Shown: positions 10,956 to 49,545 of the stretch, one piece after another
Layout: the number at the start of each line of letters is the position of its first letter
Numbering within the stretch: position 1 is the first letter of the stretch
Source of the DNA: Clostridia bacterium
Lineage (GTDB): Bacteria > Bacillota > Clostridia > Oscillospirales > CAG-272
Assembly (NCBI GenBank): GCA_017556745.1
Contig: JAFYMF010000055.1
Coordinates: 171-64,170 of the forward strand
Length of the DNA stretch: 64,000 bases
Direction: 5' to 3'
Notes under the pieces: model-generated
What the model was told of the DNA's origin: nothing
The model's database searches: none
Seen by the model: only the letters and a program-made list of their open reading frames with translations
Translations under genes and position numbers: made by a program

Positions 10956-11032
10956 GGCGGAATAGCTCAGTTGGCTAGAGCAATCGGTTCATACCCGATA
11001 GGTCGTGGGTTCAAGTCCAACTTCCGCTACCA
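10956..11032 (+). tRNA. tRNA-Met (anticodon CAT; a lysidine-modified tRNA-Ile2 cannot be excluded)
   Basis: Hand-folded cloverleaf: D stem GCTC/GAGC, anticodon stem ATCGG/CCGAT with loop TTCATAC, encoded CCA. Has a G1-U72 wobble and one G-A mismatch in the T stem. Confidence 0.8.
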
Positions 11033-11107
11033 GGCCCGTTGGTCAAGCGGCTAAGACACCGCCCTTTCACGGCGGTAACACGAGTTCGATTCTCGTACGG
11101 GTCACCA
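11033..11107 (+). tRNA. tRNA-Glu (anticodon TTC)
   Basis: GGCCCGTTGGTCAAGCGG...CCGCCCTTTCACGGCGG...GTTCGATTC...ACGGGTCACCA. Folds as a canonical cloverleaf with encoded CCA. Directly abuts tRNA-Met. Confidence 0.93.
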
Positions 11108-26128: not shown

Positions 26129-26326
26129 CCCTACCGCGTTCAAGCACATTTTGAAAAAACATCTCTAACCTCGTAGGGGCGACCTTTGGTCGTCCGTTTT
26201 AATTATATCTTTATCGCTCGACAATCGGGCGAACACAGTTCTCCCCTACGGGTGTGATAGGCTCTGTCGAATAAAATACGGAATTAAGCTCTAAACAATC
26301 CATACCGCGTTTGAGCACATTTTTGA
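26129..26326. repeat. 26-nt direct repeats (171-bp spacing) flanking a GC-rich compound palindrome
   Basis: CCCTACCGCGTTCAAGCACATTTTGA (26129) versus CCATACCGCGTTTGAGCACATTTTTGA (26300). Between them, outer stem CGTAGGGG (26172) / CCCCTACG (26243) encloses hairpins GGGCGACC-TTT-GGTCGTCC and GGGCGAAC-ACA-GTTCTCCC. Confidence 0.8.
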
Positions 26327-26328
26327 GG

Positions 26329-26652
26329 ATACATAAAACAAAGGAAAAAACTCCTTCCACCACCGAATTCGGAATTTCGAAAATTCGAATTCTTGTGGTC
26401 CCCCTCCCTCAGGAGGGAGGCTTGAATGCACATGTTATACTGCTATAATTCTTGAGTATTAGTGGCGCATTCCACAAGAATTACTTGGTTATTCGAAGAA
26501 CACCGTTTTGCTAACGCAAAAACGTAATTCTTCTTTAGTTAGGCTCCCTCCAAGAACATTGTTTACAATGTTTCGGGAGCTGTCGAGCGTTATTTGCGAA
26601 GCAAATATCAAGACTGGGTGAGTATATTTGGAATGATGAAACTACATGAAAC
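26329..26652 (-). repeat. single copy of the multi-hairpin repeat family seen at 31128-31809 (inverted genomic orientation)
   Basis: The reverse complement shares identical blocks AGCCTCCCTCCTGAGGGAGGGGGACCACAAGAATTC (36 nt, 26387-26422) and CCGAATTCGGTGGTGGAAGGAG (22 nt, 26351-26372). It also shares the TTTCAT...ACTC(A/C)CCCAGTC block, with equivalent but sequence-diverged hairpins. Confidence 0.85.
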
Positions 26653-26656
26653 AATG

Positions 26657-26727
26657 AAAAAAACTCCGCCTTATGAGCGGAGTTTTTTAGAAAAGATAAA
26701 AGCGGCTCACCCGAAGGTAAGCCGCTT
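26657..26727 (-). terminator. two tandem terminator hairpins downstream of the surface-protein gene
   Basis: ACTCCGC-CTTATGA-GCGGAGT flanked by A/T runs (26657-26688). AGCGGCTCACC-CGAA-GGTAAGCCGCT followed by a T-rich tract on the minus strand (26691-26727). Confidence 0.75.
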
Positions 26728-26760
26728 TATTATTTAATCATTTCTGATTATCAAGGCTAA

Positions 26761-29631
26761 TTATCTAACCTTCTTAGCAACTACTACGCCTGCAAGAGCA
26801 AGAGTAGCGATTACTGCGAAGCCAGCAACTGCAACGTCAGAGGTCTGAGCAGCAGGAGTCTTGTTGGGAGCCTTGGTGGTGTCTGCAGGAGTCTCGTTGT
26901 CTGCCTTAGCGGTAGTATCAGCGGGAGTCTCAGCAGCAGCCTTGTTTACATAGTCAACTTCGTAACCATGGATAGCAAACTGGTTGTCAATACCCTCAAG
27001 AGTAGAAGTGAAGGTACCAACGTTAACGATCATACCCTTGTTAACAACCTTACCGTTTACGTTGTCAAGCTTGCCCTCAACGCGTACGTCATAACCGTAC
27101 TCGTTGTAGAAGGTACCGTTGTTTACAAACTCACCCTTGATGAGAGTGTAAGCTACGAATGCCTTGTAAGGATCGAAGGTGTAGAAGGTCTTGTCGTTAA
27201 GATACTCCATAACACCATCCATACCGGTTACCTTCTCGAAGTTAGCGGAATCGAAGTTCTTATAAGTACCATTGTTTACAATAGTAGCACCCTTTGCAAC
27301 AACAACATCGTTGAAGTTGTAGAAGGTACCGGACTTGATCTCGATCTCGCCCTTGTTATCAACAAGACCACCGTTAACAATCATAGAATTATCAACTACG
27401 ATCTTACCGGAGTTGTCAAGGAGCCAGCTGCTATAATTGAATGCAGTAAGAGCCTTGGAAAAAGGATCCTTAGTCTGAATGTAAGCAACGAAGAAAGAAG
27501 AATCAGTAATATTGAGAACAGCATCCTTAGCGTTATAGAACTTCTCAAAGCCCATACGACCGGTCTTGGTAATGTTCATAGTACCGTTGTTGAAGATACG
27601 TCCATCATAAACAACGAACTCAGAATCCTTATTATGGCCGGGGCAGTTCTCACAACCGTCGTAAACAACAACCTTAGACTCGATGGTGTTGTAGGTTGCA
27701 TTCTCAGGAATGATTATCTTTTTATCCTCATCATCGGGATGCTCATCCTCAGTTGCCCAGTTGTCTCTGTGGTTAGTGAAGGACTTGAAAGTAACAGTCA
27801 TAGTACCGTTGTTAACGATCTTACCGCCGCCGTTCTGGAAGAAGTAACCGGAAAGATTCATAGTACCGTCGTTGGTGATACCAAGAGGATATACAGTAAG
27901 GTTGGTCTTACCAGCAACAGTCTGCTCGGTGTATGCACCTTCTCTGTTTCTGATAAGGAGTTTGGACTCGAGAGTAGAATCCTTATTGGTAGCAGATGCG
28001 TAATCGAAAGTACCTATGTTCTTAAGAAGACCGGCAATCTCAACGTTAACACCGGTACCGGTAACGGATACAGAACCAGCGTTAGTGAAAGTTCCGCGGA
28101 AAACAAGTGCATCGCCACCATTTGCACTATCAATAGCAATAGTACCAAGGTTTCTGTGCTGTGCATATACAGGTGCTCTGAAGTCATCATCACCCTCGTC
28201 AATATAAGCAACATAGGTAGTAGCAGCAAACTTAAGAGTAGGAGCAACCTTGGTCTCTACTCCGGTAGCATTGTTGTTAAACACTGCAGTCTCACCAATG
28301 ATAGAACCGGAACCGGTATTATTAAATACCTTATTAACGGTAAGAGTACCGCCAAGCTTTACTTCACCACTGTTGGTAAAGCCACACGCAGCAGTAAGGT
28401 TAGCTGCAAAAGTCTCGATCTTACCATTGTTGATAAGATCAGGACACATATTAGCATCGTAATCCTGATAGTATCTGAGACGATAACCAACATAATCCTC
28501 AAAAGTACCAACAAGCTTTACAGTACTTGTGTAGTTAATAGGACCAGCACTTGTAACCTTAATAGTACCTTCGTTGAAGAAGTCAGCACTGTTGGACACC
28601 TCAAAACGAGCCTTTGAATTATTCCAGCTAGCAACAGGTGCAAAGGTCCAAGTTACATTACCGTTGAACTCAAGAAGACCGTAGTTGTACACATTAGCGC
28701 TATAACCGAGGTTAAGCTCGTAGTTACGGGTAGCACCGTCAACACCGGTAGCAAACACGGTCTCAATAGTACCGTAGTTGTAGAAGTTCTTAGCTGCGGT
28801 AGCAGCATCAGCAAAACGAACGTTTGCCCAGTAAGACGTGGTTGCCTTGTAAGGATCCTGGATGTGACCCTTAGCGTCAACATACGCACCGTCACAAACC
28901 TTGGTGTAGTCGGTCTTGCCGTTTACGATAGTGATCTTACCGTAGTTAGCGATCGCACCGATAACGTAGATGTGACCGTCAGCCTCAAGAACGAGGTTGG
29001 CACCCTCTTCGATCTTCTCGTCAAGATTGATAACGATAGGAGTTACGCAATCAACGATGAAGTTGTCCTCGAGAGAGAAGTTTGCGAAGGTGTAGTAACC
29101 GTCTTTGTTAGCAGTGATCTCTACTTCCTTAGCAGTACTGGTAGCACTGTCATAAACAGTTCTGGCAACATAGAGCTGAGGAATCTTGTTGTCGTGAAGA
29201 TCCTTATCCTCGATCATGTAGTCTTTCTTAACAGTGATCTCAATTGCAAGATCATAAGTACCGTCAGCGTTAGGAACAGCAGAAATGATGTCGTACTCAA
29301 CGCCGGGGTTCTGCTCAAGTCTGAACATCTCAACAGGAGCAGTGTAGTGAGAAATAGTGATGGGCTCGGTTGCGGGAGAAGAAAGAACCCACTTACCGTC
29401 AGCGTTGGGAGCGATCTCGGTGCCATCATCAAGAACGAGGATGAGGCCGGTGCCGTCAACGCCATTGATGGTGAAACTGTTAATGGTGTAAGTAATAACG
29501 CCATCAGCAACAGAAACACCCATGTTAGCTACCATACCGTCAGGTCCATTGAAGTGACCAGCAGCAGAAGCAGCTACTGCCATAACAGTGATCATAAGCA
29601 CTGCTACAACAAGTAAAAATGCCTTTTTCAT
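26761..29631 (-). CDS. large secreted cell-surface protein with NxG-type beta-helix-like repeats and C-terminal membrane anchor
   Basis: Signal peptide MKKAFLLVVAVLMITVMAVAASAAG. At least 18 copies of the motif [FILV]xNxG[TKSE][IMFL]. C-terminus ETPADTT x2, AAQTSD, a 21-aa hydrophobic stretch, then KKVR. ATG 29631 lies behind GGAGGAA. Confidence 0.85.
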   Translation of the reverse strand: MKKAFLLVVAVLMITVMAVAASAAGHFNGPDGMVANMGVSVADGVITYTINSFTINGVDGTGLILVLDDGTEIAPNADGKWVLSSPATEPITISHYTAPVEMFRLEQNPGVEYDIISAVPNADGTYDLAIEITVKKDYMIEDKDLHDNKIPQLYVARTVYDSATSTAKEVEITANKDGYYTFANFSLEDNFIVDCVTPIVINLDEKIEEGANLVLEADGHIYVIGAIANYGKITIVNGKTDYTKVCDGAYVDAKGHIQDPYKATTSYWANVRFADAATAAKNFYNYGTIETVFATGVDGATRNYELNLGYSANVYNYGLLEFNGNVTWTFAPVASWNNSKARFEVSNSADFFNEGTIKVTSAGPINYTSTVKLVGTFEDYVGYRLRYYQDYDANMCPDLINNGKIETFAANLTAACGFTNSGEVKLGGTLTVNKVFNNTGSGSIIGETAVFNNNATGVETKVAPTLKFAATTYVAYIDEGDDDFRAPVYAQHRNLGTIAIDSANGGDALVFRGTFTNAGSVSVTGTGVNVEIAGLLKNIGTFDYASATNKDSTLESKLLIRNREGAYTEQTVAGKTNLTVYPLGITNDGTMNLSGYFFQNGGGKIVNNGTMTVTFKSFTNHRDNWATEDEHPDDEDKKIIIPENATYNTIESKVVVYDGCENCPGHNKDSEFVVYDGRIFNNGTMNITKTGRMGFEKFYNAKDAVLNITDSSFFVAYIQTKDPFSKALTAFNYSSWLLDNSGKIVVDNSMIVNGGLVDNKGEIEIKSGTFYNFNDVVVAKGATIVNNGTYKNFDSANFEKVTGMDGVMEYLNDKTFYTFDPYKAFVAYTLIKGEFVNNGTFYNEYGYDVRVEGKLDNVNGKVVNKGMIVNVGTFTSTLEGIDNQFAIHGYEVDYVNKAAAETPADTTAKADNETPADTTKAPNKTPAAQTSDVAVAGFAVIATLALAGVVVAKKVR

Positions 29632-29667
29632 GTTTGAATTCCTCCTGAAAATATTTTTTACGATGTA

Positions 29668-29696
29668 ATTATAGCACAGGGTTTTCAAAAATGCAA
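29668..29696 (-). promoter_or_regulatory. strong promoter of the surface-protein gene
   Basis: TTGCAT-17 nt-TATAAT with TGC directly upstream of the -10 (extended -10), minus strand. Leader ~30 nt. Confidence 0.7.
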
Positions 29697-31076: not shown

Positions 31077-31127
31077 TTATCTAATATAGCGTTAGATAAA
31101 AAGCTAAATTTATTTAAAACAAGCTTT

Positions 31128-31477
31128 GCTGACAGTCCTCTCAAGAGGGGGCCTAACTTAATAATATATTACTATAGGAAAATTTTCGTTTTCGCTTTTG
31201 CGAAACAAGTGTCACGAAGGCACCTGAGAAAATTTTCGCAGAACGGGCAATCTTTGACTTAGCTTTTTCCGGCGCCCGTTCAGCCTCCCTCCTGAGGGAG
31301 GGGGACCACAAGAATTCCGAAATTCGAAGAATTTCCGAAATTCGGAGAATTTCCGAATTCGAAGAATTTCCGAATTCGGTGGTGGAAGGAGTCGGTTTCC
31401 CGTTCCTTTGTTTCATATAACTTCATCATTTCAATCATACTCCCCCAGTCATCGGGACATTAGCTCCGCAATGTCCT
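31128..31477 (+). repeat. multi-hairpin repeat unit A (350 nt)
   Basis: Starts with boundary motif GCTGACAGTCCTCTCAAGAGGGGGCCT. Hairpins: TTTCGC/GCGAAA, AGGTG/CACCT, GAACGGGC/GCCCGTTC, CCTCCCT/AGGGAGG and GGACATT/AATGTCC. Contains four 17-nt mini-hairpin repeats. Confidence 0.9.
31312..31377 (+). repeat. tandem 17-18 nt mini-repeats GAATT(T)CCGAA(A)TTC, 4 copies
   Basis: GAATTCCGAAATTC-GAA-GAATTTCCGAAATTC-GGA-GAATTTCCGAATTC-GAA-GAATTTCCGAATTC. Each copy can fold as GAATTT-CCG-AAATTC. Several GAATTC sites. Confidence 0.9.
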
Positions 31478-31809
31478 GCTGCCAGCCCCCTCAAGAGGGG
31501 GCCTGACTTGATAATATATTACTATAGGAAAATTTTCGTTTTCGCTTTTGCGAAACAGGTGTCACGAAGGCACCTGAGAAAATTTTCGCAGAACGGGCAA
31601 TCTTTGACTTAGCTTTTTCCGGCGCCCGTTCAGCCTCCCTCCTGAGGGAGGGGGACCACAAGAATTCTGAAATTCGGAGAATTTCCGAATTCGGAGAATT
31701 TCCGAATTCGGTGGTGGAAGGAGTCGGATCCCCGTTACTTTACTTCATATAACTTCATAATTTCAACCATACTCCCCCAGTCATCGGAACATTAGCTCCG
31801 CAATGTCCT
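31478..31809 (+). repeat. multi-hairpin repeat unit B (332 nt)
   Basis: Roughly 95% identical to unit A by eye. Has three instead of four mini-repeats (31662-31709). Starts with GCTGCCAGCCCCCTCAAGAGGGGGCCT. Confidence 0.9.
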
Positions 31810-31836
31810 GCTGCCAGCCCCCTCGAGATGGGGCCA
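31810..31836 (+). repeat. third copy of the 27-nt boundary motif (degenerate)
   Basis: GCTGCCAGCCCCCTCGAGATGGGGCCA, immediately upstream of the DUF559 gene. Confidence 0.8.
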
Positions 31837-31869
31837 ATATAGTCCGATATTACACAAAAACCGAACTTA

Positions 31870-32268
31870 ATGTTTTTTAAGGCGGTGGTCAAAATGCCTA
31901 TTCACTACAATAGTAATAATTTACCTCTTGCAAAAGCACTAAGAAAAGAAGCAACAAAAGAAGAAAATCACTTATGGTATGATTTTCTATCGAAACATAA
32001 TCCACGATTTCAACGTCAAAAGCCTATTGATAATTTCATAGCTGATTTTTATTGTCACAAAGCAAAGTTAGTAATCGAAATAGATGGCTCTCAACATTTT
32101 ACAAAAGTCGGTAAACAAAAAGATCATTTCCGTACGGAGATACTTGAGGGATACGATCTTAAAGTCATAAGGTTTAACAATCTGCAAATACGGGAAAACT
32201 TCCCCGGGGTTTGTATGTATATTGATAAAGTCGTAAAATCAATATGTAACACAGAGGACAACTCGTGA
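31870..32268 (+). CDS. DUF559 endonuclease-domain protein (Vsr/restriction-endonuclease-like fold)
   Basis: LRKEATKEENHLWYDFL...FQRQKPIDNFIADFYCHKAKLVIEIDGSQH...LKVIRFNNLQI matches the DUF559 pattern. An alternative start at ATG 31894 is possible. Confidence 0.8.
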   Translation: MFFKAVVKMPIHYNSNNLPLAKALRKEATKEENHLWYDFLSKHNPRFQRQKPIDNFIADFYCHKAKLVIEIDGSQHFTKVGKQKDHFRTEILEGYDLKVIRFNNLQIRENFPGVCMYIDKVVKSICNTEDNS

Positions 32269-32297
32269 TTTTTTGTTTCACTCCCACAGCCAGCTTC

Positions 32298-32324
32298 GCT
32301 GCCAGCCCTCTCAAGAGGGGGCCT
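32298..32324 (+). repeat. fourth copy of the 27-nt boundary motif
   Basis: GCTGCCAGCCCTCTCAAGAGGGGGCCT, 29 nt after the DUF559 stop and 37 nt before the nif3 start. Confidence 0.85.
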
Positions 32325-32361
32325 AAAGTAAGAACCATGTTGAAGAAAAGGAGGCAAACAG

Positions 32362-49363: not shown

Positions 49364-49372
49364 ATCAATACA

Positions 49373-49545
49373 TTATTCTTCGGGGCAAGGTGAGAATCCT
49401 TACCGGCAGTAACAGTCTGCGACCCGCATTTGCGGCTGAACGGGTGTGATTCCCGTACCGACGGTCATAGTCCGGATGAGAGAAGAAGTATGCGTTTCTC
49501 CGTATATTTATGCCCCAAGACCGTTATGTCTTGGGGCTTCTTTTT
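49373..49545 (+). promoter_or_regulatory. FMN riboswitch (RFN element) with intrinsic terminator
   Basis: TTCTTCGGGGCAAGGTGAGAATCCTTACCGGCAGT...GTGTGATTCCCGTACCGACGGTCATAGTCCGGATGAGAGAAGAAG matches conserved RFN blocks. Terminator GCCCCAAGAC-loop-GTCTTGGGGC plus a T-run at 49512-49545. Confidence 0.9.

Follow-up and report, generated by a model that had tools for sequence, protein, structure and literature searches.

Hairpin modules between trmK and NIF3 in a Clostridia genome as candidate ends of a dispersed DNA repeat family linked to DUF559 nuclease genes

In a genome of a Clostridia bacterium (Oscillospirales; CAG-272) a block of 1.3 kb separates trmK from NIF3/DUF34, and four similar short hairpins are spaced along it. 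The question raised by this locus is what the hairpins are, and whether they act as RNA or as DNA. The window is a stretch of 64,000 nt (GenBank assembly GCA_017556745.1, contig JAFYMF010000055.1, positions 171 to 64,170 of the forward strand); coordinates below are window positions, on the plus strand unless stated otherwise. The block consists of two and a half repeat units and a DUF559 gene, the hairpins bounding two tandem non-coding units of ~350 nt and the single DUF559 open reading frame (ORF), and rimM-trmD-murJ lies downstream of the trmK-block-NIF3 region. The initial annotation had read the variation within the hairpins as the mark of a folded plus-strand RNA or single-stranded DNA (ssDNA). 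Comparison with other genomes and metagenomes points to a different answer, in which the boundary hairpin is probably an end module in a REPIN-like family of DNA repeats, with a PD-(D/E)xK nuclease of DUF559 as its partner enzyme.

The four hairpins are same-strand copies of GCTG[A/C]CAG with an 8+8 hairpin, located at 31128-31153, 31478-31503, 31810-31835 and 32298-32323. All four are recovered by a degenerate pattern with a chance expectation of 0.01. The 5' arms of copies 1 to 4 are GTCCTCTC, GCCCCCTC, GCCCCCTC and GCCCTCTC. The 3' arm GAGGGGGC is unchanged in copies 1, 2 and 4, and copy 3 carries a pair-breaking G>T transversion in this arm (GATGGGGC) together with a change in the loop. 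These positions and letters agree with the initial annotation, which had recorded C-to-T variants in the 5' arm and a 3' arm intact in three copies, and had proposed that the variants turn G-C into G-U pairs on one strand only, under selection on that strand. The T at arm position 5 is common to copies 1 and 4, and in a related strain (run X4) both 31136 and 31132 are C, so that its copy 1 is identical to copy 4 of the window. The arms therefore record only two to three independent C>T events, of which at least one is recent, beside one disruptive G>T. The predicted RNA folding energy of copy 1 is -8.6 kcal/mol on the plus strand and -6.2 kcal/mol on the minus strand, and this is the sole copy that folds better on the plus strand; for copies 2 to 4 the plus/minus values are -15.2/-19.2, -9.6/-11.6 and -11.3/-11.8 kcal/mol, the minus strand being as good or better. 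None of the four window hairpins (0/4) has a folding energy better than its dinucleotide shuffles. The strand asymmetry of G-U pairs is a small-sample illusion, the pattern being within chance, and the T variants of the window are probably recent, effectively neutral or mildly deleterious mutations, not selected G-U pairs.

The boundary hairpin is the outermost part, H2, of a module of ~50 nt that is here called A. It reads from a box, box1 ACTCCCTC, through a hairpin H1 (GTCAGC-loop-GCTGAC) to H2 (GCTCCCTC-loop-GAGGGAGC), and its family consensus is ACTCCCTCAGTCAGC-loop-GCTGACAGCTCCCTC-loop-GAGGGAGCC. A second module, B, was read in the 300 nt around each match and consists of GCCTCCCTC-loop-GAGGGAGG (H3), a variable hairpin H4 and the box GGAGGGAGT. 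It is the reverse complement of A in diverged form, although some genomes have an exact version. In one candidate pairing (P1), box1 ACTCCCTC would pair with the B box GGAGGGAGT; it was dropped, as two of the eight positions are mismatched in the window and the box variants show no covariation.

The behaviour of the stem was assessed on 193 unique-context A-module hairpins from other genomes and metagenomes, with both arms ascertained alike. Among 1544 H2 pairs, 1517 (98.3%) are Watson-Crick pairs; the remainder are 7 G.U pairs on the module strand, 10 A.C pairs, which are G.U on the other strand and of which 3 are orthologous, and 10 other mismatches. The strand asymmetry proposed for G-U is thus absent from the larger sample. 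Disrupting changes are at least as frequent as wobble changes, and wobbles are not restricted to one arm, which is the outcome that the initial annotation had named as refuting its reading. The difference between CCCCC/GGGGG and CTCCC/GGGAG, on which the annotation had also relied, is a real compensatory change, and CTCCC/GGGAG is the family consensus; the minus-strand copy at 26541-26584 has the arms GCTCCC...GGGAGC and the inner stem AACATTG/CAATGTT as described there. Other compensatory variants of H2 replace T-A with C-G at position 2 (5 copies), G-C with C-G at position 0 (3) and C-G with T-A at position 7 (2). A metagenome scan anchored on box1 and H1 alone, with H2 left free, gave at least 120 loci, among which the stem GCTCCCTC/GAGGGAGC is nearly invariant and the loop is free (AGA, GGG, GGA, TGA, AAA and others). 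A pair count on the raw MAFFT alignment gave 91% paired cells against 39-49% in slid controls, with 0 of 500 shuffles reaching the observed value; this count is noisy, since the alignment misplaces variants in loop length and an alternative class of downstream sequence, and the registered tally of 193 copies is preferred. The mismatch tally of H3 in the B modules is contaminated by mis-registered matches and was not used quantitatively. These results support selection on H2 to stay self-complementary.

The variable hairpins beside H2 keep their pairing although their sequences differ widely. Apical inserts in H1 range from 3 to 35 nt, and 13 of the 15 unique inserts of at least 7 nt add 2-8 perfect pairs to the stem; the mean extension is 2.4 pairs, compared with 0.61 +/- 0.21 for shuffled inserts, and contains no G.U pair. 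H4 is represented by 72 unique, mutually unrelated sequences with perfect stems, in which G.U accounts for 9 of 472 pairs when one strand is read and for 8 of 490 when the other is. It shows no overall strand preference in folding, the plus strand being better in 21 cases, the minus strand in 26, and the two equal in 25. This massive covariation in H1 and H4 makes some folded or extruded hairpin form plausible. In H1, the variant GCTGCCAG has a T.C mismatch low in the stem (alignment columns 11/30) and is found mostly where the apical stem is extended, as if the extension compensated for the mismatch.

The loops of the hairpins have a marked polarity. On the B-like strand, loops of the G..A type make up 30 of 62 in H4 and 28 of 57 in H1, and those of the T..C type 0 of 62 and 7 of 57, respectively. 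C-G closing pairs and GAA, GCA, GGA and GTA triloops dominate, and the H1 consensus on this strand is GCGAAGC, which we take to be the classic hyper-stable DNA mini-hairpin. In A modules the H2 loops consist of purines to 92%, and in B modules the equivalent H3 loops consist of pyrimidines to 89%. This mirrored polarity at the two ends of the element indicates that the constraint follows the module, as in the terminal repeats of transposons, and not one chromosomal or transcript strand. The hairpins had been said to point in the sense of the flanking genes; across loci, A modules are co-directional with the flanking long ORFs in 23 cases and anti-directional in 24, with 29 and 20 in mixed settings, a count made with a crude ORF caller. 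In addition, complete elements contain both module orientations, at odds with a single functional strand. The near-absence of G.U pairs (below 2% on either strand), the C(GNA)G triloops and the mirrored polarity favour, as far as sequences can tell, a constraint at the level of DNA over a plus-strand RNA, and terminal-inverted-repeat-like modules that would form ssDNA or cruciform hairpins fit these features. From the proposal of a folded plus-strand RNA or ssDNA, the selection for self-complementarity of H2 is retained and ssDNA may well apply; the plus-strand RNA is considered unlikely, given the lack of a G.U excess and the mirrored loops. It is important to note that a G-U "asymmetry" read from a few repeat copies is unreliable, and that loop polarity and G.U frequency over hundreds of copies are far more informative.

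The modules are not confined to this locus. A transition-tolerant pattern, allowing changes in either arm, finds 83 loci in GTDB representative genomes, of which about 78 are in Clostridia metagenome-assembled genomes (MAGs) and 5 are obvious chance matches. The carriers among them include Ca. Ventricola, Lachnospiraceae TWA4 (11 matches on one scaffold), Sporobacter, RGIG MAGs and Phascolarctobacterium, and modules are also present on 36 IMG/VR stretches. Units are arranged as A-linker-B doublets, as B-spacer-A doublets and as head-to-tail tandem arrays, in both orientations. Alignments of the A-linker-B copies of Ca. Ventricola show an additional outer inverted repeat of 20 bp and unique flanks. 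The same terminal inverted repeats bound gene-bearing and miniature copies, and the order B-DUF559-A is found in L007, L030, L263 and L267. On the strength of these comparisons the modules appear to serve as terminal inverted repeats in a mosaic family of repeats that is dispersed among gut and rumen Clostridia. The family is apparently previously undescribed: no account of it, or of its association with DUF559, turned up in literature searches that covered the module sequence, the DUF559 and ycjD genes, REPIN/RAYT/Vsr systems and homing endonucleases of the Vsr-like type.

Two further observations concern the composition of the modules and their neighbours. In about 10% of the box1+H1 anchors listed, H2 is replaced by other downstream sequence (ACCTTCGGCG...), namely in the metagenome loci L123, L124, L128, L130, L136, L150, L172, L179 and L184, which implies that the module can recombine with another partner element. 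A second, separate family consists of palindromes tagged with GTAG that resemble REPs (repetitive extragenic palindromes) and REPINs. It is found at 26170-26270 of the window (plus strand 26173-26195, GTAGGGGCGACCTTTGGTCGTCC), beside the CTCCCTC element, and in L025, L083, L114 and L227. On the IMG/VR contig L227 the GTAG REPs alternate with A modules in an array with a period of ~158 nt, and in L114 they flank a RAYT-like (REP-associated tyrosine transposase) gene of the Y1 type.

The block between trmK and NIF3 was compared with the corresponding site in sister taxa. The trmK-NIF3 spacer is 77-78 nt in these taxa and 1285 nt in the window; the NIF3 homologues compared are those of L223 (80% identity) and L224-L226 (56% identity). 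The block is an insertion of a module array with its DUF559 gene, and its copy number varies. A conspecific contig, L084, is without one whole unit of ~350 nt, the second one, and arrays of B modules upstream of the DUF559 homologue P0044 contain between 1 and 4 copies, depending on the sample. Two breaks fall within hairpins. In L085, from the species of the window, unrelated DNA is joined to the array (at ~3760) exactly in the H3 loop, at the 3' arm of H3, and the left edge of the window array (31127/31128) starts at the 3' half of H1, in the H1 loop. Such breaks could reflect cleavage of the loops in vivo or, in L085, an assembly artefact. In three loci the whole block of modules and DUF559 stands between direct repeats that duplicate the end of the upstream host gene, from its 3' part to the stop codon; they measure ~20-23 nt in L092/L096, 43 nt in L265 and 42 nt in L267. 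The L267 copies are distinguished by changes at synonymous codon positions, as though one of them derived from another genome.

The gene in the block (31894-32268) is, by its sequence relationships, a Vsr-like PD-(D/E)xK nuclease of DUF559. Its product matches Pfam PF04480 with 94.8 bits against a cutoff of 20.6 bits (3.7e-27), and the closest solved relative is PDB 3hrl (E=7e-11). The motif D...ExDGxQH...R...N is conserved and common to E. coli YcjD, with D51, E62, D64, H68, R80 and N96 invariant. An exact look-up of the 132-residue ORF was unmatched, because the product as called begins with the second ATG and has 124 residues. Close homologues are numerous, more than 4100 being returned by the search. 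DUF559 (PF04480) is a very large family, and we know of no biology assigned to its small stand-alone members.

The link between this gene and the modules was approached from both sides. Among loci ascertained by their modules, tblastn with the window product finds DUF559 homologues in 17 of 203 (8 of the 83 genome loci and 9 of the 120 metagenome loci listed). In nearly all of them the gene has a module hairpin close by on either side, the nearest being 23-133 nt away upstream and 0-100 nt away downstream, and the usual layout is a B-like module, DUF559 and an A module, with the gene between the box ends of the inverted modules. Conversely, all five homologues picked by protein alone (P0044, P0084, P0060, P0083 and P0111), with 70-76% identity and in five genomic contexts, are flanked by modules, and in the P0044 loci the stop codon of DUF559 lies inside the H2 loop. 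A divergent homologue in L005 (46% identity) is flanked by a different, variant hairpin pair in the same layout. The RAYT-like Y1 genes found in L092, L061 and L114 are flanked by GTAG REPs or by nothing, and not by modules; RAYT was therefore rejected as the mobiliser of the modules. The box GGAGGGAGT was also considered as a ribosome-binding site for DUF559 and was rejected, since it lies at distances of 10 to 70 nt and a separate Shine-Dalgarno sequence is present for each of the genes. The DUF559-module association is well supported by these sequence comparisons, and the partner-nuclease mechanism is putative.

The reading that we consider probable is that of a REPIN-like DNA repeat family served by the DUF559 nuclease. 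The family is dispersed and variable in copy number, keeps its stems perfect, has a polarity intrinsic to its modules and is tightly linked to DUF559. In the proposed mechanism the stems would be kept as perfect palindromes in the DNA, able to form hairpins either by folding of ssDNA or by extrusion of a cruciform, the DUF559 nuclease may bind or nick these extruded hairpins, and such binding or nicking may drive the copying, homing or maintenance of the modules. Several points weigh against it. Transposition, excision and cleavage were not seen directly in the sequences compared, and there is no regular target-site duplication, only the host-gene duplications of variable length (20-43 nt) in three loci. 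The arrays on viral (IMG/VR) contigs carry modules and no DUF559, and DUF559 is not, to our knowledge, a family of transposases; an equally good account of the association is that the repeats are the target of a DUF559 gene of the homing type. The near-invariant stem sequences could reflect recent copying rather than selection. The purine and GNA loops of H1 and H2 lie on opposite strands, which no simple model explains. The orientation count was made with a crude ORF caller. Finally, the array lies inside an operon and is probably transcribed, and an added role at the level of RNA may exist; the single metatranscriptome in which sequence of the operon was detected gave no coverage of it.

This last point leads to the alternative of a structured plus-strand RNA, in which the hairpins would stabilise the trmK-DUF559-NIF3 transcript, mark sites for its processing or attenuate it, as transcribed REP and BOX elements do. 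The operon is co-directional and the array almost certainly transcribed, all window copies are in the sense of the flanking genes, the hairpins are stable, the H2 loops are purine-rich on the A strand and copy 1 folds better on the plus strand. Nevertheless we regard this alternative as unlikely. A G.U excess is missing throughout (7 G.U against 10 A.C in H2, under 2% on both strands in H4, none in the H1 extensions), the count with a crude ORF caller shows no orientation bias towards flanking genes across loci, and the loop polarity is mirrored between A and B and does not follow one transcript strand. Rfam, searched with the window and 18 loci at the gathering threshold and at E<=10, gave chance-level matches only. 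The flanks of the hairpins have no T-runs and the interval 31100-32330 has no terminator-like site, so the array carries no signal of an intrinsic terminator, and the T variants of the window are recent polymorphisms.

The partner role of DUF559 can itself be questioned. The modules might form an ordinary family, like REPs or miniature inverted-repeat transposable elements (MITEs), moved by another enzyme or by recombination, and DUF559 might be an independent, selfish, free-standing homing gene that preferentially lands in or is retained between modules. The Vsr/DUF559 clade does include a group I intron homing endonuclease, and there is a weak PHROG match to "homing endonuclease". Modules far outnumber DUF559 genes and form arrays without them on viral contigs, the relic of a DUF559 3' end after E. 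coli ycjD suggests turnover, and the synonymous differences between duplicated host-gene ends suggest import from a donor genome. However, no other candidate enzyme is linked to the modules, the RAYT-like genes being flanked by GTAG REPs instead, and DUF559 takes a stereotyped position between the box ends, with matching variant hairpins around the divergent L005 homologue. This looks like co-evolution and not opportunistic landing, and we consider an independent homing gene unlikely. Far less credible is a cassette array of the integron/attC type, with the hairpins as recombination sites, or a locus similar to type III toxin-antitoxin systems, in which the repeat RNA would neutralise the DUF559 nuclease. 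Hairpins of the same orientation do bound three "cassettes", and tandem B repeats of 57 nt stand directly upstream of DUF559 in the P0044 loci. Against this, the RYYYAAC/GTTRRRY cores are not conserved, GCCTAAC being present in copy 1 only, modules are scattered over whole genomes with neither cargo genes nor toxins beside them, some samples have a single repeat, the empty sites of sister taxa have no attachment-like hairpin, and no integrase was found among the neighbours scanned with Pfam.

It is useful to compare the family with known systems. It shares with the REP/REPIN-RAYT systems (REPtrons) of Proteobacteria the short palindromic extragenic repeats in tens of copies per genome, the inverted doublets and mosaic clusters, and a partner enzyme gene flanked by inverted copies, the RAYT gene between REPs being paralleled by DUF559 between modules; in both, recognition of the hairpins presumably takes place on the folded DNA. 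It differs in that the module consensus has no GTAG or CGTC tag, the partner is a Vsr-like PD-(D/E)xK nuclease (DUF559) instead of a Y1 HUH transposase, and the module of ~50 nt comprises two hairpins and a box. GTAG REPs and RAYT-like genes coexist with the modules in the same genomes as a separate family. The BOX elements of S. pneumoniae and the bacterial interspersed mosaic elements (BIMEs) and BoxC of E. coli similarly have A, variable middle and C-like modules with complementary ends, contain a variable number of internal tandem units, and occur both within operons and between genes. Their sequences are unrelated, and they have no known partner enzyme, whereas a nuclease gene is consistently embedded here. 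MITEs with long terminal inverted repeats (Correia/NEMIS, RUP) resemble the family in these repeats, in the presence of short non-autonomous copies beside rarer gene-bearing ones, and in polymorphism of presence and copy number between strains; the present elements have neither a target-site duplication of fixed length nor a DDE transposase, and their termini are themselves hairpins. The window gene agrees with the Vsr/DUF559/I-Bth0305I clade in a DUF559 Pfam score far above threshold and in the conserved ExDGxxH-type motif. Unlike Vsr it has no adjacent cytosine methyltransferase, and unlike I-Bth0305I it is not inside an intron.

The organisation of the inserted block follows from these modules, its order being partial A, linker, B, spacer, A, linker, B, spacer, A, DUF559, A. 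The left edge is a 5'-truncated A module, E1 (31128-31153), made up of the 3' half of H1 (GCTGACAG) and of H2 at 31135-31152, the truncation point being inside the H1 loop. Linker l1 (31154-31281) joins the A and B modules and is ~130 nt long, compared with ~20 nt in the Ca. Ventricola copies. The module B1 (31282-31392), a diverged reverse complement of A, contains H3 CCTCCCTC/GAGGGAGG at 31284-31301, H4 with the arms ACCAC...GGTGGT, and the terminal box GGAAGGAGT at 31384-31392; the apex of its H4 is filled with 18-nt tandem repeats containing GAATTC. Spacer s1 (31393-31438) runs from B1 to A2 and occupies the slot that DUF559 holds in full-length elements. A2 (31439-31503) has box1 ACTCCCCCAGTC, an H1 that is extended at its apex by GGACATT/AATGTCC, the sequence GCTGCCAG, and an H2 (31485-31502) whose stem is perfect. 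The second unit (31504-31770) consists of linker l2, B2 (H3 at 31634-31651, box at 31716-31724) and spacer s2. It is followed by A3 (31771-31835), whose H2 (31817-31834) has the disruptive G>T, and by the DUF559 endonuclease gene (31894-32268, 124 residues, alternative start at 31870). The right edge is A4 (32280-32323), with box1 ACTCCCACAGCC, an H1 whose loop is TTC (read as GCGAAGC from the opposite strand) and an H2 at 32305-32322. A complete s-A-linker-B element lies on the minus strand at 26350-26660; its A module has arms of the consensus type GCTCCC/GGGAGC with an inner hairpin in the H2 loop (26541-26584), and its B module is at 26350-26421.

Other features of the window are noted here. 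The H4 apex repeats at 31310-31384 and 31660-31712 are 18-nt units rich in GAATTC palindromes (GAATTTCCGAAATTCGGA), and their number differs between the two units of the window and between strains; in runs X4 and X20 a skip of 48 nt, from 31317 to 31366, falls within them. On the minus strand, a 975-residue ORF at 26761-29688 has no Pfam match and contains many imperfect internal repeats (TAGTACCGTTGTT... motifs); its product may be a surface protein of the repetitive kind, and it is followed by two strong terminators at 26658-26728. An FMN riboswitch at 49372-49491 (105.6 bits) and two adjacent tRNA genes at 10956-11104 are ordinary features.

The corresponding gene of E. coli K-12, ycjD (DUF559; L221, NC_000913.3 1351030-1351840), is overlapped by hairpins at both ends: the start by a perfect one of 17 bp, TCACCTCATTCTGACAA/TTGTCAGAATGAGGTGA, and the stop by one with C-rich and G-rich arms. 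The gene is followed by a partial duplicate, a relic, of the DUF559 3' end. Approximately 170 nt downstream of ycjD there is a GC-rich repeat, found in a median of 16 places per E. coli genome, which is probably BoxC or similar to it.

These features bear on a broader proposal, in which small DUF559 proteins of the YcjD type would be dedicated partners of a second, hitherto unrecognised class of REPIN-like hairpin repeats, as RAYTs are of REPs, and this class would extend beyond Clostridia to E. coli. The proposal is tentative, and we consider it possible, not probable. Assemblies tend to break at repeats, and the location of many of these DUF559 genes on short contigs would be explained by such breaks if the link is true. 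We know of no partner enzyme for most bacterial interspersed repeats other than REPs. A link between a nuclease gene and hairpin repeats, if true, would give a testable function both to DUF559 and to orphan repeats, and E. coli ycjD would then be a tractable experimental model.

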